This document shows positions 4,013 to 22,757 of a stretch of 64,000 nucleotides of DNA, one piece after another. The stretch is from sequence record ON113170.1; one strand, written 5' to 3'. Numbering within the stretch: position 1 is the stretch's first letter; each line of letters opens with the position of its first letter. Source of the DNA: Enterococcus phage vB_OCPT_CCS1. A program made the translations under genes and the position numbers. A model generated the notes under the pieces. The model was given only the letters and a program-made list of their open reading frames with translations. It was not told where the DNA came from and did not search any database.

Positions 4013-4243
4013 TCAGTTTTTGTCATCAGGTTCTAATAGCTTGTCCGCAGGCATATCAAAAATCCGAGCTAATTTAGCTTGATTATTTGCTCTGGGTTTT
4101 TTGATTCCATGCTCCCAATAGGATACAGTTGACCAGTGTACACCTAGTTTTTTAGCTACAGAACGCAAGGATTCATGCTTTTCTTCACGAACACGTTTCA
4201 GCACCAAGGGTTTTGGCTTGCTTTCCACGATTCTCCCCTCCAT
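4013..4243 (-). CDS. HTH XRE-family (Cro/CI-type) transcriptional regulator
   Basis: 76 aa; helix-turn-helix LRSVAKKLGVHWSTVSYWEHG. Confidence 0.7.
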   Translation of the reverse strand: MEGRIVESKPKPLVLKRVREEKHESLRSVAKKLGVHWSTVSYWEHGIKKPRANNQAKLARIFDMPADKLLEPDDKN

Positions 4244-7950: not shown

Positions 7951-7954
7951 ATAC

Positions 7955-9108: not shown

Positions 9109-9202
9109 TCTTGGGAGCAGGCGGGTTTGTGTCAAGTACACAATACCTAATCTTCTGTGCATGTTGTTCCCTAGGCTTTATGCACACCCTACTATCTGCA
9201 TA

Positions 9203-9388: not shown

Positions 9389-9539
9389 GTTACCTCCTTA
9401 TTATGTATAACCCATGAAGCATCATGGGGGGACTGTAGTATGCCCAACCTGCGGGGATGCTCCGCTCTGAATCCGTAGAAATCAGCCACAATTCGATATT
9501 TATTTAATGAAAAAATTAGATAGGATTCGACTGCTTGAC

Positions 9540-9640
9540 AAAGGCAGTCTATGGAGTAGACGGGACTCGAACCCGTGTCCTAACGTAGAACCATACAAAA
9601 TTCTACGGGCGTAGTTACTAGTTTTAATCTACGTTAAGGT
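9540..9640 (-). ncRNA. tRNA-like/Y-like structured element: canonical T-arm (ACGGGTTCGAGTCCCGT) followed by a closed hairpin GACTGC-CTTTGTCAA-GCAGTC, preceded by a 7-bp hairpin CGTAGAA...TTCTACG; no matching 5' acceptor strand
   Basis: Hand folding; the 3' acceptor CTACTCC has no GGAGTAG partner anywhere upstream. Confidence 0.35.
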
Positions 9641-10132
9641 TACAACTAATAACTGAAATTACCTTAACTGAGTGGTAAAGCCTCTCCTGAGTTATCCACT
9701 TTTACCTCAGCGTTGTCGGTTGATGAGTCCTCTAGGTAGAACCGACCCTAGTCTAGAGGGGTAAGTGTGTAGCTAGTCTAAAACTAGGCTACAGCTAATA
9801 ATTCTTCGTTTTTAGCAGTTATATTTACTGCGATGATTAAGTCATCACTCTGCCCGCTATTCATATACTCCTTACGCCAGTCGAAACCAAAACTACCCCA
9901 ACATAAGAATTTCTTTTGACTAACCCTACCCTTCCGGCAGGGTCTAATCAAAAGTATACAATTAAAAAAATGAAAATGAGTTACGGAAAATGTAACGTCT
10001 CCACCACCGGACTATAAGGGTAAGTTGTTCCGGTCTTTAACCTAAGTACTTTACTTAAATCTAACAGGACAGCCTTCATTACGTAAACTACTTAACCATG
10101 TAAAACGTAAAGGTCAATTTCCGTTGACCTAA

Positions 10133-10206
10133 TGCAAGAGGGGGGATTCGAACCCCCACTGAATAGATTCTAAGTCTACTTCCTCTGCCAGTTGGGATAC
10201 TCTCGC
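10133..10206 (-). tRNA. tRNA with anticodon TAG (Leu-type anticodon) but a short 5-nt variable arm; atypical
   Basis: GCGAGAG...GTAGA-CTTAGAA-TCTAT-TCAGT-GGGGGTTCGAATCCCCC-CTCTTGC. Confidence 0.45.
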
Positions 10207-10290
10207 ATAATAACAGCCCTACCCAACCGCTGTTCTGCTAGCATATAGCTTGCAGGCTTTTTATCTGTGTTATAAAAACCAGAAAGGCTA

Positions 10291-10374
10291 TACGGGTAAC
10301 AGGAGTCGAACCTGCATGTCACAAGGGACAATGGATTTTAAGTCCACAGCGTATACCAGTTCCGCCATACCCGC
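10291..10374 (-). tRNA. tRNA-Leu(TAA), class II
   Basis: GCGGGTA...GTGGA-CTTAAAA-TCCAT, long variable arm, GCAGGTTCGACTCCTGT-TACCCGT. Confidence 0.7.
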
Positions 10375-10552
10375 ATAATCACTTTTTAAACTAGATTATT
10401 TATGATTTCCCACTTCTGAAAAAAATACCACTTTATATATCAACATTTTTCTTATGAATGGGTTAAGATATGTTTTAACGAAAAAGAGGCTAAAAGAGTA
10501 TTTCCTCAAAATTTTTTGTCAAGTTAATCTAGTAAGGAAAAGTGTAACCTTA

Positions 10553-10623
10553 TGTGACTGCTCAGAATCGAACTGAGATTCATGTTTCCACAGAACACTG
10601 CCTTACCGTTAGGCTACAGTCAC
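10553..10623 (-). tRNA. tRNA-His(GTG) with encoded G-1
   Basis: (G)GTGACTG-TA-GCCTAACGGTAAGGC-GTGTT-CTGTGGA-AACAT...TCAGTTCGATTCTGA-CAGTCAC. Confidence 0.75.
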
Positions 10624-10637
10624 CATCATGTGTTCCT

Positions 10638-10676
10638 TACAAGAATTACTATACAGCATCTTGTAAGGAAAGTCAA
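10638..10676 (-). promoter_or_regulatory. promoter TTGACT-17-TATAGT with the -10 box embedded in a 10-bp palindrome CCTTACAAGA/TCTTGTAAGG (operator-like), upstream of tRNA-His
   Basis: Motif, spacing and dyad symmetry. Confidence 0.45.
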
Positions 10677-10695
10677 CACTTAAATGTAATTTTAT

Positions 10696-10917
10696 TTAAA
10701 AAAGTTTTGATGAATCTAATTGAGAGAAACTTTCAGGTAGAGAACCTAGTTCTTCCATATACTCTTGGTCAATCTCATAAACAGATAACTCGGTTACTTC
10801 GTTTTCAATAGTAAGTTTCATTGCTTCTGCTGTTTGTATACTGTGTCCTTCTATTTGAAGTTTATCATCAAGATAAATACCTTCCCAGTCTTCTGCAACT
10901 ACATAGTCTGCTTTCAA
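10696..10917 (-). CDS. hypothetical acidic protein (73 aa; TTG start as in the ORF track)
   Basis: Frame offset by one from the upstream ORF, which stops 9 nt away. Confidence 0.35.
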   Translation of the reverse strand: MKADYVVAEDWEGIYLDDKLQIEGHSIQTAEAMKLTIENEVTELSVYEIDQEYMEELGSLPESFSQLDSSKLF

Positions 10918-10925
10918 GATATTAC

Positions 10926-11177
10926 CTACTTTCTTCTCAATTTCTGATAAAAATTATTATTCTTGTAATCATCCTCGTGGGCATAGAATTTTTTCATGTC
11001 ATATGTCCAACAAGTTTCTTCTACTCGTTTATGATGTGTCAATGTTACTTCGTCATCAAAACAACCTTGATTTAATTTATGCCTGTAATTTCTATTAACC
11101 ATTCTTTTTATATCTCGAACAGTTGAATCTTTCATACAAACATAACGGTAATAGGGTTTTCTGTAACTTCTACTCAT
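10926..11177 (-). CDS. hypothetical basic protein (83 aa)
   Basis: AAGGAGG RBS. Confidence 0.45.
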   Translation of the reverse strand: MSRSYRKPYYRYVCMKDSTVRDIKRMVNRNYRHKLNQGCFDDEVTLTHHKRVEETCWTYDMKKFYAHEDDYKNNNFYQKLRRK

Positions 11178-11331
11178 TGTAAGTCCTCCTTAATAGATAC
11201 TTACAATTTAGACAATACTTTCTTCACAGGAACCACTCCTTATTAATAAAAGCTACCTCCCGAAAAACGTTTCTTCACCAAAGTGTAAGACGTAAACTAA
11301 CGACAGGTCATAGTTTTCCAATTAAGGCAAA

Positions 11332-11405
11332 TACCAGTGAGAGGATTTGAACCTCTGACACCCGCCTTATCAAGACGATGCTCTAACCAACTGAGCTACA
11401 CTGGT
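11332..11405 (-). tRNA. tRNA-Ile(GAT)
   Basis: ACCAGTG-TA-GCTCAGTTGGTTAGAGC-TCGTC-TTGATAA-GGCGG-AGAGGTTCAAATCCTCT-CACTGGT. Confidence 0.7.
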
Positions 11406-11558
11406 GTGACCCATGTGTCAGGACTTTCACCTGTTCTCGGGGTGCCCCGCCTCTCTACTAATCTCCTCATTCGGTGCCCCTACTAGAGTGACTAGAGATA
11501 GTTAGCAATAAAAATTATATATCATGAATCAAATTTTTACTGCATCCTATATACACGA

Positions 11559-11630
11559 TACCGTCTACAGGATTTGAACCTGTGACATCCACCTTGTAAG
11601 GGTGACGTTCTCCCACTGAACTAAGACGGT
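11559..11630 (-). tRNA. tRNA-Val(TAC)
   Basis: ACCGTCT-TA-GTTCAGTGGGAGAAC-TCACC-CTTACAA-GGTGG-ACAGGTTCAAATCCTGT-AGACGGT. Confidence 0.7.
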
Positions 11631-11699
11631 GAAATATGGAACCCTACCAGAGGATTTCTTTCGGTATTACAGTCACCTCGGCATGAACAAAGCCAGATA

Positions 11700-11760
11700 T
11701 TGAGGTCTGGACTTCTCACGCCCCGGGAGTCGAACCCAGTATAGACAAACCATATTTTAT
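11700..11760 (-). ncRNA. tRNA-like fragment (T-arm CTGGGTTCGACTCCCGG plus 3' acceptor GGCGTGA without a 5' partner)
   Basis: Hand folding. Confidence 0.3.
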
Positions 11761-11854
11761 ACGGAAGACAGGATTCGAACCTGCGATATAGGAGTTTTAG
11801 TGCACTTATTGTCTCCACGGTATCCGTTGCGTATGCCCTACACGCCACTTCCGT
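11760..11854 (-). ncRNA. long (95 nt) atypical tRNA-like gene: acceptor ACGGAAG/CTTCCGT, D-arm and T-arm canonical, but no resolvable anticodon arm (contains GGAG...CTCC with a 20-nt insert)
   Basis: Hand folding; could be an unusual class II tRNA or a decoy. Confidence 0.35.
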
Positions 11855-11861
11855 ATGTTAA

Positions 11862-11934
11862 CCGACAGTAAAGGAATCGAACCTCTATCACTAGATTCGT
11901 AGTCTAGTATCCTATCCAATTGAACGAACTGTCG
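11862..11934 (-). tRNA. tRNA-Arg(ACG)
   Basis: CGACAGT...CTAGA-CTACGAA-TCTAG...AGAGGTTCGATTCCTTT-ACTGTCG. Confidence 0.6.
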
Positions 11935-12036
11935 CTCTAGGCTAGCAATTACGCAGACTGACTATGGGCACCTTCGTCCCGTCCCCTGTAAGTGCCCTCC
12001 TACAGGTTGTCCGTGGCACCGCAATGTACTAACCGA

Positions 12037-12110
12037 TGTCCCCACAGGGATTTGAACCCCGAACCTCCCGATTAAAAGTCGGGTGCTCTAGCCGATTGAG
12101 CTATGAAGAC
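12037..12110 (-). tRNA. tRNA-Lys(TTT)
   Basis: GTCTTCA-TA-GCTCAATCGGCTAGAGC-CCCGA-CTTTTAA-TCGGG-CGGGGTTCAAATCCCTG-TGGGGAC. Confidence 0.7.
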
Positions 12111-12159
12111 AGTTGTGTTTTTCAAGATAACCCTCTCGAAAAACCGTTACTAATAGAAA

Positions 12160-12242
12160 AACTAAGGGTCTCGACTGACAGATTTGAACTGCCTGCTCCT
12201 CCTAAGAGGCGTGTTACCAAAGCCATACACCAACTCTTCGAG
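12160..12242 (-). ncRNA. aberrant tRNA-like element (good T-arm GGCAGTTCAAATCTGTC, weak acceptor pairing 5/7, no standard anticodon arm)
   Basis: Hand folding; overlaps the 3' end of tRNA-Lys(CTT). Confidence 0.3.
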
Positions 12243-12243
12243 A

Positions 12244-12318
12244 ATATCCCCTACAGGATTCGAACCTGTGACCCCCTGATTAAGAGTCAGGTGCTACCAC
12301 CAACTGAGCTAAGGAGAT
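12244..12318 (-). tRNA. tRNA-Lys(CTT)
   Basis: ATCTCCT...CCTGA-CTCTTAA-TCAGG-ACAGGTTCGAATCCTGT-AGGGGAT. Confidence 0.65.
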
Positions 12319-12334
12319 AAGATTACCAATAGCT

Positions 12335-12412
12335 AGTTAAGCCTTACGGAATCGAACCGCCATGAGGTTATGAAGCTCACATAGACCACTAGACACAAAA
12401 CTAGCTTATTGA
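12335..12412 (-). ncRNA. aberrant tRNA-like element (T-loop TTCGATT; acceptor 5/7)
   Basis: Hand folding. Confidence 0.3.
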
Positions 12413-12510
12413 TAAAATTCTATATAGATAATTGTATGCAATGTTCGCACTAACTAACCAGATAACTAGCCAATCATTCAAAACATTAATTTGTGAGTTT
12501 CCGCTCACAA

Positions 12511-12582
12511 TGCTGATTGAGAGAATCGAACTCCCATTCCCGGGTTACAAAGCCGGAGTAATAGCCGTTATACTAAATCAGC
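12511..12582 (-). tRNA. tRNA-Thr(TGT)
   Basis: GCTGATT-TA-GTATAACGGCTATTAC-CCGGC-TTTGTAA-CCCGG-GGGAGTTCGATTCTCTC-AATCAGC. Confidence 0.65.
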
Positions 12583-12584
12583 GT

Positions 12585-12604
12585 AACCCCTCAATAGAGG
12601 GGAA
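12585..12604 (-). terminator. hairpin CCCCTC-AATA-GAGGGG after the AAA ATPase stop codon
   Basis: Stem-loop. Confidence 0.3.
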
Positions 12605-12607
12605 TTA

Positions 12608-13699
12608 TTATACTAGGTTACCATACCCGTAGGTATTTGTTTGAGCTTGTTTAAACATGATGCTCTTGATAGTTAAGTCGTTGTACTTTTCATCGTCTTC
12701 ATCATCAAGGTACACATCAACGTTAACGTTCTTACCGGAAATACCGATTGTTTCGTCTTTACCAACTGTTAAGTCTTTACTGTTGAATGATACATCAAAG
12801 TAGATGCTATCTTCTTTTGTACGACTACCGAACGAAACTCTGTCACCGAATAAATCTAAGCTTCGAGAGTTGATTACAACAGGTTGTAACCCACCTTCGA
12901 ATTGAATAGTTACTGTGTAATATTGATTTTCAATATTAAGGATGTTTAAGTCAGCAATAGCTTCACCAAATGGGATACCAAAGTTTAATTCCAACGCAAT
13001 AGCTCGTAAGCAGTCATAATTTAACTTAATTCTACGGCTAAACTTAACAACACTGTCAATTTCACCATAGTAAGCTTCGTCTAACTTATCTTGCAAGTAA
13101 GTACGAATTTCATCTGCATCAGGATATTCGAAACGTAAATGGTAATGAAAACGTCCCGGACGGTTAAGCATAAAGTCATTTACACGATTTAAGCTATTAA
13201 CAGTAAGAGCGTAGATACGTTTACGTTGTGATAAACCATCGAATAAGCTCAATAGTTTTTCTTGTGGTTCACGACCGTCACGGTCATTGAATACTTTTTC
13301 AAACTCATCGAACAGGATAAGAGACTCTTGGTCAATACTGTCAATAAATTCTGCAATCCCCGGATAAGCTTCTGTAATTAAGATAACAGGCATACCCTCT
13401 TCAATAGCTCGTTGAGATAAGATTTGAGTAAATAGTGATTTACCAATCCCTTTGTCTCCACTTAAAATGATTCCTAAGCTACGATTAATTGTTTTAAATG
13501 TGTGTAGCACTTTTTCAATTTTAGCTAAACGGTCACCGTAAACTTTAGGTTCTTTCAAATCAAAATCGTCTGTTACTACTAGCGAGAACCCTGACATTTG
13601 ATTGAACCGAACTTTATAAGTTTGCGCAGGTAACTTATCATAAGTTTTAAGGTCGTTTGCATAAATTTCATAGTTACTACCATAGTTGATTACTTTCAT
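12608..13699 (-). CDS. AAA+ family ATPase (classical AAA clade)
   Basis: Start taken at MKVINYG (AAGGGG RBS). Walker A GDKGIGKS, Walker B LILFDEFE, second region of homology NRPGRFHYHLRF. Embedded in the tRNA operon. Confidence 0.75.
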   Translation of the reverse strand: MKVINYGSNYEIYANDLKTYDKLPAQTYKVRFNQMSGFSLVVTDDFDLKEPKVYGDRLAKIEKVLHTFKTINRSLGIILSGDKGIGKSLFTQILSQRAIEEGMPVILITEAYPGIAEFIDSIDQESLILFDEFEKVFNDRDGREPQEKLLSLFDGLSQRKRIYALTVNSLNRVNDFMLNRPGRFHYHLRFEYPDADEIRTYLQDKLDEAYYGEIDSVVKFSRRIKLNYDCLRAIALELNFGIPFGEAIADLNILNIENQYYTVTIQFEGGLQPVVINSRSLDLFGDRVSFGSRTKEDSIYFDVSFNSKDLTVGKDETIGISGKNVNVDVYLDDEDDEKYNDLTIKSIMFKQAQTNTYGYGNLV

Positions 13700-13738
13700 A
13701 AATATTCCCCTTATTCGTGTTTTACTAGCATTTGCTAA

Positions 13739-13812
13739 TGGAGAGGGGTGGAATTGAACCACCGACCCCTAGGGTTTCAATCTAGTGCTCTAACCTACTG
13801 AGCTACCTCTCC
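13739..13812 (-). tRNA. tRNA-Phe(GAA)
   Basis: GGAGAGG-TA-GCTCAGTAGGTTAGAGC-CTAGA-TTGAAAC-CCTAG-GGTGGTTCAATTCCACC-CCTCTCC. Confidence 0.6.
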
Positions 13813-13933
13813 GTGTCAATTTGGACTTATCCCCCACGTGGTTACTAAGATAAGTCCTATGCCTTTGAAGTGTGGATACTCAAAAATGAGTACAGGTACT
13901 AAAAATCTGATGACAAGTCAGATTTATATCATA

Positions 13934-14004
13934 AGCAGAAGGTGAGATTCGAACTCACATTCAGGGGTTTGCAATCCCTAGCCTTAACCACTTGGCTACT
14001 TCCG
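13934..14004 (-). tRNA. tRNA-Cys(GCA)
   Basis: GCGGAAG-TA-GCCAAGTGGTTAAGGC-AGGGA-TTGCAAA-CCCCT-GTGAGTTCGAATCTCAC-CTTCTGC-T. Confidence 0.7.
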
Positions 14005-14017
14005 CAATATCAAAATA

Positions 14018-14089
14018 CACGCTGTGAAGGATTCGAACCCCCGTCTTCCGGGTTGGAGCCGGAAATGATAGCCACTACACCAACAGCGC
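14018..14089 (-). tRNA. tRNA-Trp(CCA)
   Basis: GCGCTGT...TCCGG-CTCCAAC-CCGGA...GGGGGTTCGAATCCTTC-ACAGCGT. Confidence 0.65.
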
Positions 14090-14164
14090 AAGATTCGGAG
14101 GGGAGGGACTAGCAACCCTCCGAAAGATGTAAGATAATGAGAGATTAAAACATACCACTATTAA

Positions 14165-14215
14165 AAGTGGAATAGGTAATTAAGGATTCGAACCTTACAA
14201 GCCCTTACTGCTTAC
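14165..14215 (-). ncRNA. mini tRNA-like remnant (acceptor plus T-arm only, about 48 nt) immediately downstream of a promoter
   Basis: AGGTAAG-CAGTAAGGGCTTG-TAAGGTTCGAATCCTTA-ATTACCT. Confidence 0.3.
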
Positions 14216-14226
14216 CTTGTAAACTT

Positions 14227-14255
14227 ATAGTATCATGTGTTGTACCGAAAGTCAA
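14227..14255 (-). promoter_or_regulatory. promoter TTGACT-17-TACTAT
   Basis: Motif and spacing; a CTTGTAA motif lies nearby. Confidence 0.4.
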
Positions 14256-14274
14256 CACTTTTTATAAAAATAAT

Positions 14275-14294
14275 AGGGAGAAATATTTCTCCCT
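14275..14294 (-). terminator. perfect palindrome AGGGAGAAATATTTCTCCCT followed by a U-rich tract (minus sense), between tRNA-Met and the upstream promoter
   Basis: Hairpin plus AUUAUUUUUAUAAAA. Confidence 0.45.
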
Positions 14295-14300
14295 AAAAAA

Positions 14301-14373
14301 TGGACTACTTGGGAATCGAACCCAAACCTGTCAGTTATGAGCTGACGGCTCTGACCTACTGAGCTAATAGTCC
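14301..14373 (-). tRNA. tRNA-Met(CAT) (Met or lysidine-Ile cannot be distinguished)
   Basis: GGACTAT-TA-GCTCAGTAGGTCAGAGC-GTCAG-CTCATAA-CTGAC-TGGGTTCGATTCCCA-GTAGTCC. Confidence 0.75.
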
Positions 14374-14406
14374 GTGTAATAATACCACGAAATAAACCTT
14401 AGTAAG

Positions 14407-14508
14407 TCATACAGTCCCAGAAAGGGAGGCATATGATACTAGTGTTGAGTGCCATAATCGTTTAATAAATGTGACTGAGAGAGTAATAAATTTCTTAGGC
14501 ATGTCCAT
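14407..14508 (-). CDS. possible 33-aa peptide MDMPKKFITLSVTFIKRLWHSTLVSYASLSGTV
   Basis: AAAGGAGG RBS 5 nt before the ATG; flanked by a 14-bp inverted repeat (GGGAGGCATATG / CATATGCCTCC). Confidence 0.3.
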   Translation of the reverse strand: MDMPKKFITLSVTFIKRLWHSTLVSYASLSGTV

Positions 14509-14580
14509 ATGCCTCCTTTCCAATAATGATAGTTTTAAGATATAAACAGAATAAATAAAAGAGAAAATAATAATGAATAA

Positions 14581-14652
14581 TAGCGCATGAGAGAGTCGAA
14601 CTCTCGATTCCGGTTCGAAAGACCGGTGTCTTGACCGCTTGACCAATGCGCC
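14581..14652 (-). tRNA. tRNA-Glu(TTC)
   Basis: GGCGCAT-TG-GTCAAGCGGTCAAGAC-CCGGT-CTTTCGA-ACCGG-GAGAGTTCGACTCTCTC-ATGCGCT. Confidence 0.75.
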
Positions 14653-14657
14653 ATAAA

Positions 14658-14732
14658 CGAGCTATATGGGACTTGAACCCATGACCTTCTCCGTGACAGG
14701 GAGACGAGCACTCCTGACTGCTCCAATAGCCC
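14658..14732 (-). tRNA. tRNA-Asp(GTC)
   Basis: GGGCTAT-TG-GAGCAGTCAGGAGTGCTC-TCTCC-CTGTCAC-GGAGA-ATGGGTTCAAGTCCCAT-ATAGCTC. Confidence 0.75.
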
Positions 14733-14769
14733 AATGTTTCCCCAACCACCGCCACCTAGGGGATTCGTA

Positions 14770-14890
14770 CGTCTACGTGAGTTTTTTGGTTATAGTTCCT
14801 TGTTTAAGACAAGGAAGTACGAGTGGACTACCAATTTACCACTCTGCGGTTCTGATTGCGGTAGGTGGGATATGTAAGATAAAAAGACCA
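14770..14890 (-). pseudogene. degenerate tRNA-like sequence (mutated T-loop GTACGAATCC; 7-bp anticodon-like stem TTCCTTG-TCTTAAA-CAAGGAA)
   Basis: Hand folding. Confidence 0.3.
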
Positions 14891-14899
14891 CTCTTAGAA

Positions 14900-15917
14900 T
14901 GATTTAATCTGTAAAAAACACATCGCATAAACGAGATGCAGTTATAGCTCTATCAAGCAACCTACACCGATTCCGTCGATTACTACCGACATCGCCTTGC
15001 TCGTGTACTTTGAGCGCCCATTTCCAACCCTCGGTTGCTAATGTTTCTCTCCTAACCTACACCTGAGAGTGGCACACGTCTGTGCTAGTATTTTATGCCT
15101 ATTAACTGATTCGCAGGCACACTGCTTAATTCAGCCAACCAATCGGCATCCGATAAGATTGATTGTTTCCGTAGGTTCTTTAAGTCACTGGAGTGGTACT
15201 GCCCCACTCACGCCTATTAAAGTGTTAACTTAATAGATAAAAACTACTCATAACAGGTTTACTACCATAGCATTCTCTACTTCCGCCACAGTGACATGTT
15301 TAAAAACTCAAAACTTAATAGATTAAGGGCTTTTCTTCCTGCTTCATATACACTCACTGCATTCGGTCACATACTCAGAGAGGCTGAACCATCGGGAGCT
15401 ACCCGATAGCTTCTCTCTGCCTTTAATGTATGGTCTAGCACGGTGGCTAACAACGTTCACCTAAACATTCAGCTATTAAAAGTATTAATTAACATATATC
15501 CTTATGTCTTCTATAATATTTTCATCAAAAGCTGACTTAGGCTACTTGTACCAAGGTCTCTTGTTAAACCTGTATTTCTACAGTTCTCGTCAAAGGGAGT
15601 CTTTTGAGTTTTCCAAGGTCTGCCAAGCTTCTCACACTTCCACCTAACTTGGATTCTTTTCCACAGGAACGTCTATTGTATCCCCCAAGAGTCTTGTACC
15701 TTACAATCCATGTATACTCCACATAACGCTTAACTGATATTAGCTTTTACTAATAGTTACTCCTATGTTACCATAAGACCTACCTGCAACCCAAAGCACT
15801 ATCGCACCTTCGGTTACATTCAGATTCACGCCACGCTATCCTAGCAAGCTGTTCAAACTTTCTGCACTAGGTTCAAAATCTATTAAGTTTTCAATTTTTA
15901 ACCACTAACTTGTGGTG
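14900..15917 (-). ncRNA. candidate large structured ncRNA (about 1 kb ORF-free, GC-balanced, hairpin-rich); GOLLD/ROOL-like is the suggested class from context only
   Basis: No ORF of 60 aa or more on either strand across roughly 1 kb inside the tRNA array; local stems such as GAGTGG-tactgcc-CCACTC and nested CAGAGAG..ATCGGG-AGCTA-CCCGAT..CTCTCTG; dedicated promoter at 15925-15953. Confidence 0.35.
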
Positions 15918-15924
15918 TAATACT

Positions 15925-15975
15925 AATATAGCATAACATTACAAAGTTGTAAACACCTTTTTGTAAGTTTTTTTG
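15925..15975 (-). promoter_or_regulatory. promoter module: A-tract, -35 TTTACA, 17 nt, TGCTATATT, driving the ORF-free 1 kb segment
   Basis: Motif and spacing; near-identical to the module at 7371-7420. Confidence 0.45.
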
Positions 15976-15987
15976 ATTTTTTTTTGA

Positions 15988-16075
15988 TGGAAGGTAAGGG
16001 GGTCGAACCCTTACACCGGATTTCTCCGACCTAACTGATTAGCAATCAGCCCTATTACCATTTGAGTAACCTTCC
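15988..16075 (-). tRNA. tRNA-Ser(GCT), class II
   Basis: GGAAGGT...GCTGA-TTGCTAA-TCAGT, long variable arm, AAGGGTTCGACCCCCTT-ACCTTCC. Confidence 0.65.
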
Positions 16076-16085
16076 AAAAACAAAA

Positions 16086-16108
16086 AGGGAACCCCTGTAA
16101 TTAAACAG
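16086..16108 (-). terminator. hairpin CCCCTGT-AATTAA-ACAGGGG followed by UUCCCUUUUUGUUUUUGG
   Basis: Minus-sense terminator just upstream of tRNA-Ser(GCT). Confidence 0.4.
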
Positions 16109-16184
16109 GGGTAAGAGAGATGTCTCTAAAAGCCTACAACCATTATAACATAGAAACATAGTTTGTACAGCCGTAACTGTACAA

Positions 16185-16256
16185 CTGTCAGGACAGGGTT
16201 CGAACCTGTATCGTAACTTCCAAAGAGTTATGTCCTACCTATTAGACGACCTGACA
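16185..16256 (-). tRNA. tRNA-Gln(TTG)
   Basis: TGTCAGG-TC-GTCTAATAGGTAGGAC-TAACT-CTTTGGA-AGTTA-ACAGGTTCGAACCCTGT-CCTGACA. Confidence 0.75.
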
Positions 16257-16347
16257 AAAGGTGGAACCTCCCTAAATTTGGGGAAGAGGGAGGTTATCAT
16301 GCTATTAACAAACACGAATCTGCTAACCAAGTAATCTTGACTAGCAA

Positions 16348-16418
16348 CTCACCTAGCAGGACTTGAACCTACAAGAACTGGTTAACAGCCAGTCATGATA
16401 CCGTTTCATCATAGGTGA
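16348..16418 (-). tRNA. tRNA-Asn(GTT)
   Basis: TCACCTA-TG-ATGAAACGGTATCAT-ACTGG-CTGTTAA-CCAGT-GTAGGTTCAAGTCCTGC-TAGGTGA. Confidence 0.75.
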
Positions 16419-16435
16419 ATTTTAGTTCTATCAAC

Positions 16436-16470
16436 ATTATAACACAAAAGCTGATAGAACTAGCAACTTT
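16436..16470 (-). promoter_or_regulatory. extended -10 promoter TGTTATAAT within the loop of an inverted repeat, upstream of tRNA-Asn (first gene of the array)
   Basis: Motif. Confidence 0.4.
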
Positions 16471-16658
16471 TTTACAAACTTAACAACTTTTTTCTTAACT
16501 ACTGATTCAGCAACTTACTCAATAGTTAAAGACTTAAAGAAAGAGGAAGTAATTGAGGTATGTCAATCACTAACTAAAGTATACAACATTTTTATCATCC
16601 TGACAACAACTAAATACAAAAAGTTCAAAAAAGATTATAAATAGTTAAATTATCAGAA

Positions 16659-16803
16659 TATTCAAATTAATGTCCTATTTTAAATTTTTGACCTCCTTAT
16701 ATACTTAATACTATATATTAAATATATATATCTAAATTATATAAATATTAGACTATATATTATTAATATATATAAGACTTGCAAAAAATTAAAATAGGAC
16801 ATT
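16659..16803. repeat. AT-rich element E1 bounded by perfect 15-bp terminal inverted repeats AATGTCCTATTTTAA / TTAAAATAGGACATT
   Basis: Second copy at 20853-20981 with shared internal CCTTATATA...TAATACTATATAT motifs; both sit between transcription units. Confidence 0.6.
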
Positions 16804-16852
16804 TTTCTGACAATTCACTTTTAGATAAAAAGAAAGAGAGCAAAATGCCCTC

Positions 16853-17191
16853 TTACCGTGTTTCAAAGTATTCCTTGATTGTATACTCTCTAGCTTCTTT
16901 AGCTTCATCAGTTTCATCTTTAGGAGCTAAATACAAGTCAGTAATTGTAGCAGGTACCTCTACCATCTTGTAGTCAATAAAAGTAGCTTGACGTAGATTT
17001 AAGTATCGAATACCTGTTGTTCTATCAGTACCTGTATGAACAGGCAAGAAAGTTAATTCTTTACCTCTGACAGAGCCATTAGCTTGTGTTAGTGCATCAA
17101 CTACAGTTCCGCCCATATAGCGTGGAAATAGGTAAACCTTGTCAGTACCTACTGTAATTTCTGCGACCTTTTCGTGTGTTGGATAGTTCAC
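16853..17191 (-). CDS. hypothetical protein (112 aa, GTG start)
   Basis: ORF track. Confidence 0.45.
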   Translation of the reverse strand: MNYPTHEKVAEITVGTDKVYLFPRYMGGTVVDALTQANGSVRGKELTFLPVHTGTDRTTGIRYLNLRQATFIDYKMVEVPATITDLYLAPKDETDEAKEAREYTIKEYFETR

Positions 17192-17245
17192 TTATAATTT
17201 CTCCTTTCAGAATATGCTATAATTACAGTATAAGTATAACATATT

Positions 17246-17593
17246 CTATGGTTTAAAAATGCTGAACACGTAAGTCACAACCGCACCGAGAACAATCATG
17301 AAGATGTTCTCCACGATGTCTCTTTTATGGTCAAACTCTTTATCGTTTACACCTTCGAGAGCATCAATGGTTTCTTCCAGTTTTGTAATCTGGTACGTAA
17401 GATGTGAATATTTCTCTTCATGAACAGCTAACCTTTTATCAAGACTGTTAACGATGTCCTTCAATTCACTAACTGCATTATTCAGTTCTGTGTTGTCCTG
17501 TTTAATGCCCTTCTCAGTTAGTTCTCCATGTTGGAGCTTGTCTTCCAATCGTTGCAGTCTTAATACTAGGTCACCTATTTGGTAATCGTTCAT
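17246..17593 (-). CDS. coiled-coil protein with C-terminal transmembrane anchor (115 aa)
   Basis: GGGGGAG RBS; C-terminal IFMIVLGAVVTYVFSIF. Confidence 0.5.
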   Translation of the reverse strand: MNDYQIGDLVLRLQRLEDKLQHGELTEKGIKQDNTELNNAVSELKDIVNSLDKRLAVHEEKYSHLTYQITKLEETIDALEGVNDKEFDHKRDIVENIFMIVLGAVVTYVFSIFKP

Positions 17594-17632
17594 TTGTGCT
17601 CCCCCTCTCGGTTGTATAGCTCAATCTCCCGG

Positions 17633-17890
17633 TCAGTTAGAAAACCACATGTAACCGCCTATGCCCAGAATACATCCGACAAGGTAAATAATTGGAGTAT
17701 ACAGCCCAATGAAGAGCATAACCACGCTACCAACACTAAGTCCGTATAATATCAAAAGATACTTATACGATGCCAAAGGACTTAAATCTGCTTGCAGTTT
17801 TTTGTACTGTATAGCTCGGGTGACATAGTAGGATGCTGAGTAAACGAACAACTGTAGTAATAACATAGCAATAAATGCTAGTCGGTACAT
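17633..17890 (-). CDS. small membrane protein (85 aa, two predicted TM helices)
   Basis: Hydrophobic segments LAFIAMLLLQLFVY and LSVGSVVMLFIGLY... Confidence 0.5.
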   Translation of the reverse strand: MYRLAFIAMLLLQLFVYSASYYVTRAIQYKKLQADLSPLASYKYLLILYGLSVGSVVMLFIGLYTPIIYLVGCILGIGGYMWFSN

Positions 17891-18008
17891 TCTATCGCCT
17901 CTCTTCTTTCCTAGAGCTATCTTTAATATAGTACACCAAAGCCTTTATAATCAGGTGTGCTAGATTAAATATGTAGGCTAAAAAATACAAACGGAAGAGT
18001 GAGAAAAA

Positions 18009-18278
18009 GTGAAGGTACGGAAAAAACTATTATACAAATCAATTTTTATCACCATCTCTGTTATCATCATGATTTGTGCAAGCAAGCTGATTGCAGATGT
18101 GCTAGGCTTAGAACAACATTTTACAGCAACAATGCTTGTAGGAGGTTCTTTGTGGGCTTGGATAGCTAGTATTGTCTTTGATTCTTATGAGAAGAGAAAA
18201 AAGAAGGACAATCTACAGCAACAGCTTAATGAAGCACTGCGTGATTTAAAAGAGATAAAAGCGTTAATCAAAAAATAA
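18009..18278 (+). CDS. membrane-anchored coiled-coil protein (89 aa, GTG start)
   Basis: N-terminal TM ITISVIIMICASKLIADVL. Confidence 0.45.
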   Translation: MKVRKKLLYKSIFITISVIIMICASKLIADVLGLEQHFTATMLVGGSLWAWIASIVFDSYEKRKKKDNLQQQLNEALRDLKEIKALIKK

Positions 18279-18297
18279 TTAATAAGGGGTGGAGGAT

Positions 18298-18576
18298 ATG
18301 TCCCTTACAAGAGAAGAAATAAAGCAAAAAAGGCAGTATATTTTTAGCAAAGCTCAAAAGACGACAAATATACGAAAAGGGGATAAACGCATAGCAAGTG
18401 CTACACGGATGTGTGCAGTATGTGGAAGACCGTTGTCTAGACTTGTTCTTACTAATGGTTCTGCAATAGTTACTACAGCACATGTAAGCTGTAAGATGTC
18501 AGATTTAGTACGATTGAACATGTGTGAAGACATACGGTCTTGCTATGCGTATACAAGTAAAAAGGGGGAGGAATAG
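18298..18576 (+). CDS. small Cys-containing protein (possible zinc ribbon)
   Basis: ATG at 18298 with GGGGTGGAGG RBS; CAVCGRP...HVSCKM. Confidence 0.4.
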   Translation: MSLTREEIKQKRQYIFSKAQKTTNIRKGDKRIASATRMCAVCGRPLSRLVLTNGSAIVTTAHVSCKMSDLVRLNMCEDIRSCYAYTSKKGEE

Positions 18577-18580
18577 CCAC

Positions 18581-19009
18581 ATGAGTATGGCAGACCGTAT
18601 TAAAGAAAATGCTGAACAAAAGAAAATGGAACGTACATCCGAACAACGATTACGTGACACATTTAATAATGCTTCTCTCACGTTAATTAACCAGTTCATG
18701 GCTAAAGTTATGGCAGGTTCAATAGATATAGATGACGTTGGAGATTTAACCCGTCTATTCCAAATCTACATGCAGATTAATAATATCAATGCAGGAATGC
18801 AAGAGGGAACTGGTCAGTTACCTGCTCTTAGTGCTACGCAAAAAGATATTATTGCAGACAAGGTAAGCACTGAAAAGGCTACCATAGATGGAGAGGAGGA
18901 GGAAGTTGTTTCGTTGGAGGAATTAGCTAAATTATCGGATGAAGAAATTGATAAGATGCTATTGGATAAGGAAATCCAAATGAACAAAGAAAACGAAGCA
19001 ACGTTTTAA
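18581..19009 (+). CDS. putative terminase small subunit
   Basis: ATG 18581 with GGGGGAGG RBS; about 140 aa; stop overlaps the start of the large terminase (TAATG). Confidence 0.35.
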   Translation: MSMADRIKENAEQKKMERTSEQRLRDTFNNASLTLINQFMAKVMAGSIDIDDVGDLTRLFQIYMQINNINAGMQEGTGQLPALSATQKDIIADKVSTEKATIDGEEEEVVSLEELAKLSDEEIDKMLLDKEIQMNKENEATF

Positions 19010-20844
19010 TGACAAATAAAGCACAACATATTGCTAAAATGGCAAAAGAAATGTATGGGACGGACAAAATAACAACTGCACAGCTTGCCTACATCACAGA
19101 CATGTTAACTCCGTCCACATATTTACTAAGAAACCACTCCGTTCGTAATCATCCGATTACATTTATGATTTCCGGACGTGACCAACAAAAAGCCCAAGCG
19201 CATAGACCTTGGCAAGTAAAAATTATTAATGACCAACATCGAACAAAGGCAGTTATTAAATCACGGCAATTAGGGCTTTCAGAAATGGGAGTAGGAACCA
19301 TGCTACACTTTGCAGATACACATAGTTACGATGCAGTTAAGTGTTTGTATACCTTCCCAACAAATGAACAAATGACTAAATTTGTACAAACACGTCTTGA
19401 CCCAGTATTACAACGTGGTTACTACAGTACGATTATTGACCCAGAAGTAGACTCATTAAAGGCTAAGAAGATTCGTAATAGCTTTTTATACTTCCGTTCA
19501 AGTTCTAAACCGGGAGCTGTAGAAGGGGTCGATATTGATTACCTGTCTATGGATGAGTACGACCGTGTTCCTGCATTAGCCGAAGCTTCTGCATTGGAAT
19601 CTATGTCATCTTCTCCATATAAGATTGTTACTCGTTGGTCTACTCCATCAGCTCCTGATGTAGGTATCCATGCTTTGTTTGAACAGTCTGACCAATACTG
19701 GTATCTACACAAATGTGACAAGTGCAATCATTATAACCAAATGAACTATGAAGACTATGTACCGGAGGCACCAGTGGAACGCAGAGGGAATATTCTTTGT
19801 GTAAACCCTAAAGGGGTAGACCCAATTGCCAAAACAGTTGTGGATGGCTCCTTCCAATTCGTTTGTCAAAAATGTGGAGAACCATTAGACCGTTGGTACA
19901 ATGGTATATGGGTTCCTAAATACCCAGACCGTACTAAAAATGGTCTAGGTATTCGAGGATACATGATTTCTCAAATGAATGCTGTTTGGGTATCTGCTGA
20001 CCAATTAAAAACAAAAGAATTAACATCACTATCAAAACAAGCGTTCTATAACTATACATTGGGTTACCCTTATGCTGACCAGAAACTTACAGTTAATGCT
20101 AGTGACGTAGAACGTAATAGACGTGGAGACCTCCCAGAATCTCCTAGAGACCGTGGAGATTACAAGTTTATCTCTGTAGGTATTGACTGGGGAAACAGAC
20201 ACTGGGTGTCCATTCATGGCGTTAGAACGAATGGTCAAGTAGATTTAATTAAATTGTTCTCTGTAGGTAAAGCTAACCCGTTAAACCCTGATGCAATTGA
20301 TACAGATATTCAGTCAATTCGATTACAATTAGCACCATATGAACCTGATATTATCGTTGCTGATGTTGGTGACTCTGGTGATAAAGTTGCTAAACTGATT
20401 CAGATTTATGGTAAAGACCGTGTATTTGGTTGTGTATACCCATCTACACCTAAATCTACAGGTAACTTAGTGCCTAGTTGGAATGTTCAAGGTAACAAGG
20501 TATCTGCTGATAAGCTAATGCAGAATAAACGATACATCTCAAACATGAAAGATGGAGTTATTGGTTTCTACCATAAAATGGATAGTGAACTAATGCTTTA
20601 CATTGAACACTGGGGAAATGTAGTAATTCGTGATGAAGAGGATGAAAAATCTCCTACAGGATTCCGACAAACTATTGGACGTAAAGGTGATGACCACTAT
20701 TCACAAGCTAGTGTTTATTCCATGTTAGGTTATGAACATTTGATGAACGTATTTACAGGGGCAGATGACTACGGGTTTAACTCTGATTGGATTTCTACTC
20801 AATTGAACCCTACACCTCCTGATATTTTTACTCAATTTACTTAA
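19009..20844 (+). CDS. terminase large subunit (T4 gp17-like)
   Basis: 611 aa; deviant Walker A KSRQLGLSE (T4-type SRQxGKT); C-terminal RNaseH-like nuclease motifs ISVGIDWG and IIVADVGDSGD; Zn-ribbon insert CDKCN...CQKCG; positioned upstream of the portal. Confidence 0.75.
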   Translation: MTNKAQHIAKMAKEMYGTDKITTAQLAYITDMLTPSTYLLRNHSVRNHPITFMISGRDQQKAQAHRPWQVKIINDQHRTKAVIKSRQLGLSEMGVGTMLHFADTHSYDAVKCLYTFPTNEQMTKFVQTRLDPVLQRGYYSTIIDPEVDSLKAKKIRNSFLYFRSSSKPGAVEGVDIDYLSMDEYDRVPALAEASALESMSSSPYKIVTRWSTPSAPDVGIHALFEQSDQYWYLHKCDKCNHYNQMNYEDYVPEAPVERRGNILCVNPKGVDPIAKTVVDGSFQFVCQKCGEPLDRWYNGIWVPKYPDRTKNGLGIRGYMISQMNAVWVSADQLKTKELTSLSKQAFYNYTLGYPYADQKLTVNASDVERNRRGDLPESPRDRGDYKFISVGIDWGNRHWVSIHGVRTNGQVDLIKLFSVGKANPLNPDAIDTDIQSIRLQLAPYEPDIIVADVGDSGDKVAKLIQIYGKDRVFGCVYPSTPKSTGNLVPSWNVQGNKVSADKLMQNKRYISNMKDGVIGFYHKMDSELMLYIEHWGNVVIRDEEDEKSPTGFRQTIGRKGDDHYSQASVYSMLGYEHLMNVFTGADDYGFNSDWISTQLNPTPPDIFTQFT

Positions 20845-20852
20845 AAAAGCAA

Positions 20853-20981
20853 AATGTCCTATTTTAATTTTTCTACGTCCTTATATATTAATACTATATA
20901 TCTATATACCTATATCTAGTTATTAAGTATATATAGTATAATATATTATATAAGGGAGACAAAAATTTAAAATAGGACATT
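20853..20981. repeat. AT-rich element E2 with the same 15-bp terminal inverted repeats
   Basis: See E1. Confidence 0.6.
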
Positions 20982-21087
20982 TTTATCAAATTAGCTATTG
21001 ATTGACAAAAAATAATATGCTATTATACTACTTGTCAATAATAGCACTAGTTATTTTTCTTGTCATAACAATAAAGGAGACGTTTAC

Positions 21088-21933
21088 ATGAATGACAATC
21101 AAGAATACCAAGCTCTTGTTGATAATCTTCTTAGTTCTGTTCCAGAGATTAAACCTGTAGAAGCTACAGTTAGTAAGTCCTTTTTAGAAGGTATGCTAGG
21201 TAAGAAGTTAAACTACGGGTACGTTATATCAGAAAATGAAAAATTATCAAAAGACTATTCACATATTGTGAAGGCTTATGGTTTTAACTCCTTTTATGAC
21301 CTATACTGCTACGCTGATAGTTGTGATTCACTAAATGACTATTTAATTAAAGGCGGTCAAAAAGATTTATCAAAGTTGAAGCCAGTTAAAAGACGAGTAA
21401 TGAGAAATGGTAAAATGATGACAACTACTATCTACGAAGACAGTTCCGGAGAAAACGATGATAAAAACCCACTAGATAAGGACACTCAAACAGAGGAAAA
21501 TGTTGAACCAAGAAATGCTAGAGATTTAAGCAAAACAATTATTGGGGATGACCATAATGGTATAGACCCAAAACAAATTGCTAAACTTAAAACTGAGGCA
21601 GGCAGGTTAAACGGGACATTTTCAACTGATTGTTCTTCATACTTAGTTCTTCAAGGAGAAACCGGAGAACTTGGTGGTGTGGCAGGTTATCGTAAAGAGG
21701 GTAGCTATTTATATCTAGCTTTCTATCAATCAGACGACCTTACAAGTGGAGTGGCTTATGTAGCATTTACACAACTATTGTTACGTGCTCGTAAACTTGG
21801 CTTAGGTGCTAAGATTGATGCTACTGATGACCCGTTAGCACTAGAATTATTTAAAGAATACGGACTTAAAAAAAGTGGTAGTTGTTATATAATTTCCAAG
21901 AGTTCCCTACTGGAAGCGCTTGGGGAGCCATGA
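21088..21933 (+). CDS. hypothetical protein (281 aa)
   Basis: ORF track; AAGGAG RBS. Confidence 0.5.
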   Translation: MNDNQEYQALVDNLLSSVPEIKPVEATVSKSFLEGMLGKKLNYGYVISENEKLSKDYSHIVKAYGFNSFYDLYCYADSCDSLNDYLIKGGQKDLSKLKPVKRRVMRNGKMMTTTIYEDSSGENDDKNPLDKDTQTEENVEPRNARDLSKTIIGDDHNGIDPKQIAKLKTEAGRLNGTFSTDCSSYLVLQGETGELGGVAGYRKEGSYLYLAFYQSDDLTSGVAYVAFTQLLLRARKLGLGAKIDATDDPLALELFKEYGLKKSGSCYIISKSSLLEALGEP

Positions 21934-22757
21934 TTTCAACTTTTGAGTTATTTTTAATTTTAGCCTTCTCAACAACTGTGTTTATATGCTATAATCTTTT
22001 TGTAGCTCAAACAGTCAAGACAATTTTTGATTTGAGAAAAAAGGCACAAGTTGTGCTAACTGAAAGAGCAACTGAGCTAACGAAGAAGTTAACAAACATA
22101 CTGAAAGGGGATGTACAGGAGTTGCCAGAGAAAGAAAACGTAATTATTAACGAACAAACACTCTCTGACTTGTTAGTCGAAAAAGCAAGCGATGCCGACT
22201 ACAAATTGTTCATTGAGAAACTGACAGAGATTGTAAAGGACTTATATTCAAATTATCAATTTCTTCGTCAAGACCCACAGCCCGATGACTTCATGTCAGG
22301 TTATTTTTTAGGGTTCCAAGTTTTTAGAGAGGAATACCCTGTCGAATACGAGTATTTATTCCGATTAGCTATTGACCGTGGGTTAGACGATATTAAAATC
22401 AATAAACTCTTTGTCGAAGCTTTACAAAACGGAGAGGTATTACCATTAGGGGATGCCATTGTTGACCCTAACTTGTCCGGATGCAGTTCTATCCTTCAAG
22501 CACAAGAAGTACGTGTAAACATTGTATTCGCACCTAAAGCATACATGGAGCGTAAAGAAGAGTTGATTGAAGAGAAAACTGCTGAAATGGAAAAGCAGAA
22601 GAAAGAGCAACAAGAACTAGCAATCCAAAAAGACAACGTGGTTAAATCTGCACGTCTTGCTGAGGCTGTCATTAACGAATTAGTGGATGAAGTCGCAGAA
22701 AAACACGAACTACAAGAACTCGTTAAACAAATTAAAGAAAGCATGAGGTATTTCTAA
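21930..22757 (+). CDS. membrane-anchored coiled-coil protein
   Basis: ATG 21930 overlapping the upstream stop (ATGA); N-terminal TM MISTFELFLILAFSTTVFICYNLFVAQ. Confidence 0.5.
   Translation: MISTFELFLILAFSTTVFICYNLFVAQTVKTIFDLRKKAQVVLTERATELTKKLTNILKGDVQELPEKENVIINEQTLSDLLVEKASDADYKLFIEKLTEIVKDLYSNYQFLRQDPQPDDFMSGYFLGFQVFREEYPVEYEYLFRLAIDRGLDDIKINKLFVEALQNGEVLPLGDAIVDPNLSGCSSILQAQEVRVNIVFAPKAYMERKEELIEEKTAEMEKQKKEQQELAIQKDNVVKSARLAEAVINELVDEVAEKHELQELVKQIKESMRYF

Follow-up and report, generated by a model that had tools for sequence, protein, structure and literature searches.

What is the function of two AT-rich elements with perfectly inverted ends that lie between transcription units in a 64,000-nucleotide stretch (hereafter the window) of the genome of Enterococcus phage vB_OCPT_CCS1 (sequence record ON113170.1)? 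A sequence-only reading of the window had noticed both and offered three proposals for them, namely insertions resembling miniature inverted-repeat transposable elements (MITEs), large bidirectional terminator/promoter hairpins, or recognition sites for a phage DNA-binding protein. As described below, the elements are most likely neither mobile nor primarily RNA hairpins. They are probably cis-acting sites at which a protein binds at the level of DNA, and, to be said with considerably more reserve, it is possible that they function specifically as origins of replication. The phage is a Schiekvirus (Herelleviridae, Brockvirinae) of the EFDG1-like kind: over window positions 16000-22000, where both elements lie, identity to EFDG1 and to about 30 other Schiekvirus genomes is 98%.

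Inverted boxes around an easily melted core

The window contains AATGTCCTATTTTAA as an exact 15-mer four times, in two inverted pairs that form the outer ends of copy 1 and copy 2 (Table 1), and 100 dinucleotide-preserving shuffles never contained it (mean 0.00, maximum 0), so that the two inverted-repeat copies with perfect 15-bp ends are real. The limits of copy 2 stand as originally drawn, the start of copy 1 had been placed 10 nt too early (at 16659 instead of 16669), and the two lengths come to 135 and 129 bp rather than to the 130-145 bp first given. Among the internal blocks thought to be shared, TCCTTATATA (beginning at 16694 and 20878) and TAATACTATATAT are indeed common to both copies, whereas ATTATATAAG is exact in copy 2 only and reads ATATATAAG in copy 1.

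Each copy aligns with its own reverse complement, and the element consists of two inverted arms of ~36 bp around a core of 40-65 bp with 87-97% A+T. An arm is made up of box 1 (TGTCCTATTT(T/A)AA), a T-run, five to six variable bases and box 2 ([G/C]TCCTTATATA). Box 1 (TGTCCTATTTTAA) is present in every arm; box 2 starts 21-22 bp after box 1, which it resembles. Two arm types, X (TTTTTGACCTCC) and Y (TTTTCT[AG][AC]GTCC), are common to several genera, and most elements combine one of each. Judged by arm type, copies 1 and 2 are inverted with respect to each other, and the orientation relative to flanking genes differs among genera. An nhmmer profile had placed all copies in the same orientation; this result, contradicted by the comparison of arm types, was distrusted because the profile had been built from the copies themselves, and was dropped. 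No functional conclusion is drawn from orientation. The arms are not separated at a fixed helical phase either (lengths of 109-133 bp), and therefore melting, or arms that act independently, would fit better than face-to-face looping.

How strictly are the boxes maintained? Compared with phiSHEF13, which is ~91-94% identical in this region, the two elements contain 21 differences, none of which falls into the four 15-bp copies of box 1 (P ~0.004 under uniform substitution, calculated from the count); four lie at the outer edge of box 2 as defined here, and the rest in the variable loop and the core. Across 16 elements from five lineages box 1 is identical in 32 of 32 arms, 10 nt of it having been fixed by the search pattern, and it is independently unchanged in the phiEF24C copies detected by BLAST and between species. 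Box 1 is not a dyad. In lineages of the Bacillus type and of the L049 type it also occurs on its own and as direct repeats (forward sites, AT core, reverse sites): the extra copies in Bacillus phages lie 22 and 56 bp from the inner sites, and the L049 lineage bears box 1 seven times within 4.2 kb. Of the three original proposals, recognition sites for a phage DNA-binding protein is the one best supported by these features, that is, by solitary and directly repeated boxes and by a box 1 that is invariant while core and loops diverge; such sites remain a prediction from sequence.

Three further observations concern box 1 and its surroundings. Past the outer copies in Bacillus-type and L049-type phages comes a conserved small dyad, CCCTTGATAC..AAGGG, possibly a second site or else a small hairpin. 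Box 1 resembles the late promoter motif TGCTATATTA, yet the idea that it is a variant of this promoter was rejected: three bases separate TG from TATTTT in box 1, compared with one in the late motif, and every box is directed towards the core. Finally, an ordinary terminator hairpin AAATAGGGCAC...GTGTCCTATTTTTT in EFDG1 (98903-98935) and phiEF24C (41582-41612), beyond the part of the window aligned to EFDG1, has a 3' half that consists of the box 1 10-mer TGTCCTATTT, with late-promoter-like motifs on its flanks; this may reflect chance or a distant relationship.

The core is set apart by its stability. When duplex stability was calculated as nearest-neighbour free energy in 60-bp windows, the three cores of EFDG1 (its third copy is introduced below) ranked first to third among the least stable sites of the entire genome (-51.4, -51.9 and -53.9 kcal/mol), ahead of the next site at -58.9 kcal/mol and of a genome mean of -75.6 kcal/mol (standard deviation 4.1). 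The three copies in phiEF24C likewise take ranks 1 to 3 in their own genome, and within the 64-kb window the cores of copy 1 and copy 2 are the least and the second least stable 60-bp segments, respectively.

A third copy and the element in related phages

The complete EFDG1 genome, searched with both motif and profile, holds exactly three copies, two of them equivalent to copies 1 and 2 and a third that would, by position, lie ~2.7 kb past the right end of the window. Hence there are more than the two copies first noticed, and, as shown below, their positions are conserved in relatives. The third copy starts at the stop codon of the last tail-module gene and overlaps the -35 hexamer of a TTGACA-17-TACAAT promoter ahead of a gene for a UvsW-like helicase. 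Downstream of the latter are encoded a 547-aa protein with a weak HTH_36 match, whose homologue in Staphylococcus phage Staph1N is annotated 'putative Rep protein' (a search of solved structures with the 547-aa protein returned nothing useful), and then a DnaB-like helicase; there is a gene for an HU/TF1-like protein as well. We refer to the head of the transfer RNA (tRNA) array, the gap after the terminase gene (TerL) and the gap ahead of the helicase gene as sites 1, 2 and 3. In EFDG1, sites 1 and 3 delimit the ~50-kb morphogenesis and lysis (late-gene) block at 54.4-104.3 kb.

The claim that the copies occupy boundaries between transcription units holds as well. Copy 1 is flanked by a terminator hairpin on one side and, on the other, by the promoter of the tRNA array, the -35 hexamer of which begins 62 bp outside its left end; copy 2 opens 9 nt past the TerL stop codon (20844) and closes 21 nt ahead of a promoter. 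The element is always found past a gene end, often past a canonical terminator, and ahead of a promoter, and thus should be the least transcribed DNA of its neighbourhood.

When either copy was used with its flanks as a BLAST query, all Schiekvirus genomes matched over the full length, whereas in ~40 Kochikohdavirus genomes the element alone matched and the flanks did not. The kochikohdavirus phiEF24C has three copies at two loci (a tandem pair at the head of the tRNA region and one ahead of the helicase gene) and, after TerL, an ordinary terminator in place of copy 2. An uncultured relative (contigs U12 and U22) has a tandem pair at site 1, one copy after TerL and an extra one that separates two tail genes, with a canonical terminator ahead of it and the late-type promoter TGTGTGCTATAATA behind; paralogous copies of this lineage have ~15 nt of flank outside the repeat in common. 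Scans of metagenomes and of IMG/VR added divergent members, namely Bacillus phages of the Bastillevirinae (Bcp1, BM15/Hobo, BCP78/TsarBomba, Shbh1 and Bc431v3), in which two gaps at the same syntenic positions hold copies of box 1 around an AT-rich core: one separates an xre-type regulator gene from the divergent tRNA array, and the other separates the genes for the adsorption tail protein and for the UvsW-like helicase, past an annotated terminator. An orthologous copy thus occupies the site-1 gap in EFDG1, phiEF24C, U12 and the Bacillus phages, site 2 is also occupied in U12, and position is kept in Schiekvirus, Kochikohdavirus, the U12 lineage and Bastillevirinae (Bcp1, Bc431v3, BCP78 and Shbh1), with flanking intergenic DNA that cannot be aligned. 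Listeria phages A511 and P61, Staphylococcus phages 812 and Staph1N and Bacillus phage Bastille leave only 75-100 bp ahead of the helicase gene, and the motif was not found in the regions fetched from these five; the same element ahead of the helicase gene in P61, Staph1N and Bastille was accordingly rejected. Direct terminal repeats of ~2.1 kb are known from Schiekvirus (PMC9860891, PMC10054541), and the idea that the element marks their boundary was discarded, for these repeats map far from all three elements.

Is it conceivable, then, that a MITE or another selfish palindromic repeat has spread through these phage genomes without any function for the phage? In favour of this are the perfect 15-bp terminal inverted repeats, the copy numbers and sites that vary by genus (site 2 missing in Kochikohdavirus, tandem pairs at site 1, the extra tail-gene copy) and the varying orientation with respect to flanking genes. 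MITEs and Correia-type elements are likewise intergenic, 100-150 bp long, bounded by terminal inverted repeats and able to fold as RNA. The resemblance does not go much further. The flanks of copies 1-3 contain no common direct repeat that could represent a target-site duplication, no transposase with matching ends was found in the regions examined, and the three copies are syntenic across two subfamilies, with boxes that are constrained while the remainder drifts. When 185,579 genomes of bacteria and archaea were scanned for the pattern, 17 matches resulted, about the number estimated by chance, and none of the 17 had an AT-rich core or box 2, i.e. none is a real copy. The flank that the U12/U22 paralogues have in common also speaks against insertion, because a cut-and-paste element would not carry it along. 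We therefore regard this explanation, the first of the three originally proposed, as very improbable.

Neither the motif, in connection with phages, nor the element is mentioned in any paper of the literature searched, and the genome paper of Bc431v3 lists promoters and terminators but not the element. What has been found is an undescribed family of elements with an architecture of a known kind.

Candidate origin, operator or hairpin

What would a protein do at such a site? An origin of replication is our favoured, if tentative, answer because inverted boxes surround a core prone to unwinding and because the element recurs at two to three loci, one of them abutting replication genes. The box array, in which box 2 is a weaker relative of box 1 situated about two helical turns inward, would be recognised by a sequence-specific protein encoded by the phage. 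Binding of such an initiator to the inverted boxes would lead to melting of the AT-rich core, and all this would take place in untranscribed DNA that separates the end of an operon from the promoter of the operon that follows. Each genome would then possess two to three origins, one at the head of the tRNA array, one directly upstream of the module encoding the UvsW-like helicase, the Rep-like protein and the DnaB-like helicase, and, in Schiekvirus, a third after TerL. The 547-aa protein with its weak HTH_36 match, the Xre-like protein and a ParB-like protein are putative initiators. We know of no replication origin that has been defined for the group formed by Brockvirinae and part of Bastillevirinae. 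A broader version of the proposal, which is speculative and somewhat doubtful, is that the origins of Brockvirinae and part of Bastillevirinae rely on a conserved initiator acting on head-to-head TGTCCTATTT boxes, two to three times per genome, and that these mark both borders of the late-gene block. If so, the onset of replication and the division between early and late transcription domains would be tied together by a single cis element.

Several known origins are built along similar lines. In archaeal oriC-type origins, inverted origin recognition box (ORB) elements surround an AT-rich unwinding element beside orc1/cdc6, and in herpes simplex oriS and oriL an AT-rich centre lies between inverted UL9 boxes. 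The phage elements share with both the inverted boxes on either side of a melt-prone AT core, the presence of several copies per genome, the intergenic location and a copy beside replication genes. They differ in that boxes and proteins are unrelated, in that the phage initiator is a postulated protein, and in that the phage arms hold two unequal boxes, to which Bacillus phages add outer sites at 56 bp. The origin of lambda and SPP1 oriL/oriR combine iterons with AT-rich DNA, and T4 oriF and oriG combine a promoter with an unwinding element. Boxes spaced at ~21-22 bp beside an AT-rich unwinding region are reminiscent of these origins, and, as in SPP1 and T4, there is more than one candidate origin per genome, with a UvsW-type helicase encoded beside site 3. 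Here, however, the boxes are inverted around the core and do not form a direct array beside it, the element lies outside genes, and no promoter was found that would fire into the core.

Closer to home, AT-rich non-coding stretches have been proposed as origins, on composition alone, in the Kayvirus SAM1 (PMC8952766) and in the P100-like Listeria phage CKA15 (PMC12282133). Like the elements described here, these are unusually AT-rich non-coding stretches in the same virus family, but the proposals involve neither a repeated box nor inverted arms, and box 1 was not found in the regions examined in A511, P61, 812 and Staph1N. A different comparison is offered by the replication terminus. The IRI and IRII sequences of Bacillus subtilis, bound by the replication terminator protein (RTP), are two inverted repeats of ~47 bp with two adjacent sites each, ~59 bp apart, and are located just upstream of the gene for a small autoregulated DNA-binding protein. 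Inverted repeats with two sites each are found in the phages too, and in Bacillus phages xre adjoins the element in a comparable manner; sequence and protein family differ, there is no sign that the phage needs fork arrest, and an extreme AT core is not a feature of Ter sites.

GC skew, which follows gene orientation, was uninformative and does not discriminate between the readings. Several observations weigh against an origin. The motif is missing from the fetched regions of A511, P61, 812, Staph1N and Bastille, and therefore such origins, if that is what they are, would not be family-wide. Neither the tandem duplication at site 1 nor the tail-gene copy followed by a late promoter is obviously origin-like, and easily melted AT-rich DNA is also typical of gaps between terminators and promoters in general. 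Moreover, the arms form a strong RNA hairpin, and copy 2 stands where phiEF24C has an ordinary terminator, so that a role at the transcript level is possible at some copies.

How far does this last point reach? According to an alternative reading, the arms pair as an interrupted helix of ~30 bp that serves as an RNase III processing or stabilising site, or as a large bidirectional terminator parting transcription units. Intergenic RNase III sites of T7 and SP82 work by hairpins of this sort; they are long, interrupted and conserved, occur between transcription units of lytic phages (SP82 being SPO1-like), and resemble one another in sequence from site to site. Single-strand folding of each copy does predict a long hairpin (-37 to -45 kcal/mol, z -8 to -9; z -6 to -9 over both strands), with a conserved internal loop between helices, and both copy 1 and copy 2, read on the plus strand, finish with GGACAUUUUU. 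When 13 distinct family members were folded with and without their outer 36 nt and compared with shuffles, the full elements gave z values of -2.4 to -6.8, whereas the interior of 40-60 nt, folded alone, was no more structured than composition-matched shuffles (z -1.2 to +2.1). Since the interior folds no better than shuffles, the hairpin signal is confined to the ~36-nt arms; a palindrome of 130 bp was accordingly rejected, the core not being palindromic beyond what its composition yields.

The remaining evidence on this alternative is mostly unfavourable. The stem is A/U-rich and closes a loop of 40-65 nt, compared with the G+C-rich stem and short loop of an intrinsic terminator, and a terminator scan did not call the elements; beside copy 1 it called the separate hairpin listed in Table 1. 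A U-tract follows the stem in some copies and not in others: neither EFDG1 nor phiEF24C has one at site 3, and most site-1 copies lack it on the strand that matters. Many copies are already preceded by a canonical terminator. The Bacillus element lies upstream of both divergent promoters and hence is probably not transcribed. The only paired position that varies with respect to phiSHEF13 breaks its pair, and no compensatory change was seen; the inner parts of the arms are non-complementary in Bacillus-type and L049-type copies, and box 1 occurs there also alone. Rfam 15 covariance models run over 16400-21200 produced no match at the gathering threshold and none inside the elements at E values up to 10, only two unrelated weak matches outside them. 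In contrast to the T7 and SP82 hairpins, then, only the outer arms are complementary, the interior is unstructured, half-sites stand alone, and many copies lie past a terminator or upstream of promoters. The second of the original proposals, a bidirectional terminator/promoter hairpin, is for these reasons weakly supported at best, a point in its favour being the terminator that phiEF24C has at the position of copy 2, and a primary function of the element as RNA is quite unlikely. An RNase III-type hairpin is conceivable for the Enterococcus copies but would leave unexplained the solitary boxes, the inner arms of Bacillus-type copies that do not pair, and the copies upstream of two divergent promoters.

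A reading that shares with the origin the idea of a protein bound to DNA is that of an operator, insulator or boundary array, in which a phage regulator would bind the boxes so as to control or isolate the adjoining operons (the sigma-A-type promoters ahead of the tRNA array and of the replication module might, for instance, be switched on or off), or as a roadblock that parts late from early transcription. An Xre-type helix-turn-helix (HTH) protein, a ParB-like protein (window 2761-3588) or an HU-like protein could be the regulator. The gap beside xre conforms to the classic layout of regulator and operator: in several genera of the Bastillevirinae and in the L049 lineage the element is directly upstream of an xre-like gene that diverges from the tRNA array, an adjacency that does not hold in the window. 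There are multiple sites with spacings of 21-22 and 56 bp, every copy lies 0-64 bp from a consensus promoter, and sites 1 and 3 of EFDG1 bracket the late-gene block. Yet the boxes keep clear of the -35 and -10 hexamers except at EFDG1 site 3, and their distances to the promoter vary (0, 19, 22, 34, 44 and 64 bp, counted by hand), with no robust phasing; a helical phasing between box 1 and promoter that was suggestive at six sites of the Enterococcus type was lost once Bacillus-type sites were included. Box 1 lacks the dyad symmetry that Xre dimers usually need. The Xre homologue belongs to the core of the Herelleviridae and is no better conserved among the lineages that bear the motif than with the motif-free Staphylococcus and Listeria phages, so that a phyletic link between Xre and motif is not supported. 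The motif is present at two to three loci per genome compared with dozens of promoters, and the extreme AT-rich core would be left without a role. On balance, an operator or boundary array, although the chief rival of the origin, appears rather unlikely.

Could the arms instead act as DNA structure? A programmed fragile site would require them to fold on single-stranded DNA and to be cut by a Mre11/Rad50-like nuclease of the phage or by host SbcCD, the breaks seeding recombination-dependent replication. Inverted arms around easily melted DNA are in keeping with this scenario, as are phage genes annotated as recombination exonuclease and exonuclease and one for a UvsX-like recombinase. The EFGrKN record (MW004544.1, ~1075-1100, equivalent to window 16690-16765) has, moreover, a run of N exactly at the element and lacks the interior of copy 1; it was considered as an 'empty site' deletion allele and rejected, because a run of N with a collapsed interior is most simply an assembly artefact. 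Hairpin or cruciform formation is disfavoured by a non-palindromic spacer of 40-65 nt, and a structural target needs neither solitary boxes nor a strictly conserved box 1. A fragile site is thus, like mobility, a very remote explanation.

The elements deserve attention also for practical reasons. Among phages considered for therapy against Enterococcus, those resembling EFDG1 and phiEF24C are leading candidates; their Bacillus relatives are candidates for biocontrol. A short box strictly conserved in phages of two host genera constitutes a cis element that is open to testing, and it implies that a protein which binds it is conserved too and could be found. Its sites should be spared from deletion in genome engineering and synthetic rebooting, be taken into account when transcript maps are read, and be watched in assembly, one GenBank record having collapsed at the element. 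Even if the elements turned out to be ordinary boundary DNA, they would be a useful annotation.

Landmarks and neighbouring features

Coordinates of the elements and of the features around them are given in Table 1. The terminator beside copy 1 is also annotated at the equivalent position in the record of phage 113.

Table 1. Elements, boxes and surrounding landmarks in the window, with related positions in other sequences
Feature	Sequence	Position	Strand	Remarks
Copy 1 (site 1, head of tRNA array)	window	16669..16803		135 bp
Copy 1 left box 1 (AATGTCCTATTTTAA)	window	16669..16683	+
Copy 1 left box 2 (TCCTTATATA)	window	16694..16703	+	~21-22 bp inward of box 1
Copy 1 core	window	16704..16768		65 bp; ~95% A+T in its least stable 60-bp window
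Copy 1 right box 2, degenerate	window	16769..16776	-	TATATAAG on + strand
Copy 1 right box 1	window	16789..16803	-	TTAAAATAGGACATT on + strand
Copy 2 (site 2, just past TerL stop codon)	window	20853..20981		129 bp
Copy 2 left box 1	window	20853..20867	+
Copy 2 left box 2 (TCCTTATATA)	window	20878..20887	+
Copy 2 core	window	20888..20946		59 bp; AT-rich
Copy 2 right box 2	window	20947..20956	-	TATATAAGGG on + strand
Copy 2 right box 1	window	20967..20981	-
tRNA array	window	7091-16419	-	24 tRNA genes and transfer-messenger RNA (tmRNA)
Short operon past tRNA array	window	16853-17890	-
Terminase and structural genes	window	from ~18009	+
Canonical intrinsic terminator of gene 16853-17191	window	hairpin 16834-16854	-	terminator scan; distinct from copy 1
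Sigma-A-like promoter heading tRNA array, TTGTCA-17-TATACT	window	16606..16578	-	consensus match only
Sigma-A-like promoter, TTGACA-16-TATACT	window	21002-21029	+	consensus match only; 21 bp past copy 2
Xre-type HTH gene, putative binder	window	4013..4243	-	homologue adjoins element in Bacillus phages and L049 lineage
Late motif TGCTATATTA, sites including	window	23148, 24582, 25327, 26352, 28548, 30432, 34774, 38190, 38209, 45684	+
Late motif TGCTATATTA, sites including	window	116, 15924	-
Equivalent of copy 1	EFDG1	54256-54390
Equivalent of copy 2	EFDG1	58440-58568
Third copy (site 3)	EFDG1	104333-104462
Dyad CCCTTGATAC..AAGGG	L049	1312-1368, 3623-3679
Dyad CCCTTGATAC..AAGGG	L121	7290-7320
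Dyad CCCTTGATAC..AAGGG	L140	1075-1110

The late motif TGCTATATTA (TGCTATA[AT]TA) occurs 12 times in the window, compared with 1.25 occurrences expected, and all 12 follow the local direction of the genes; in a P100-like Listeria phage this sequence is reported to be the late promoter (PMC12282133). One of these sites, at 15924-15933 on the minus strand, lies ~30 nt upstream of a full-length ROOL RNA on the same strand, which is contained in the tRNA array (15309-15895, minus strand; Rfam RF03087, 267.8 bits). The tmRNA, at 9549-9899 (minus strand), is situated among the 24 phage tRNA genes and encodes the tag peptide AKNEELLAVA.

Two sets of tandem repeats lie farther away from the elements. 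In the tail region (50152-51324), three direct repeats of ~300 nt, spaced 426-447 bp apart and 77-78% identical, are apparently repeated coding modules. At 6053-6473 (minus strand) there are three tandem repeats of ~184 bp with tRNA-like arms, two of which give sub-threshold matches to YrlA, a Y RNA-like family (6126-6241, 47.1 bits, E 4e-9; 6312-6419, 34.3 bits). They adjoin the gene for a 511-aa DUF2828/DUF7788 protein (4287-5822, minus strand) that is RNA-binding according to annotation in related records, and repeats and gene together may constitute a phage module resembling Ro and its Y RNA.

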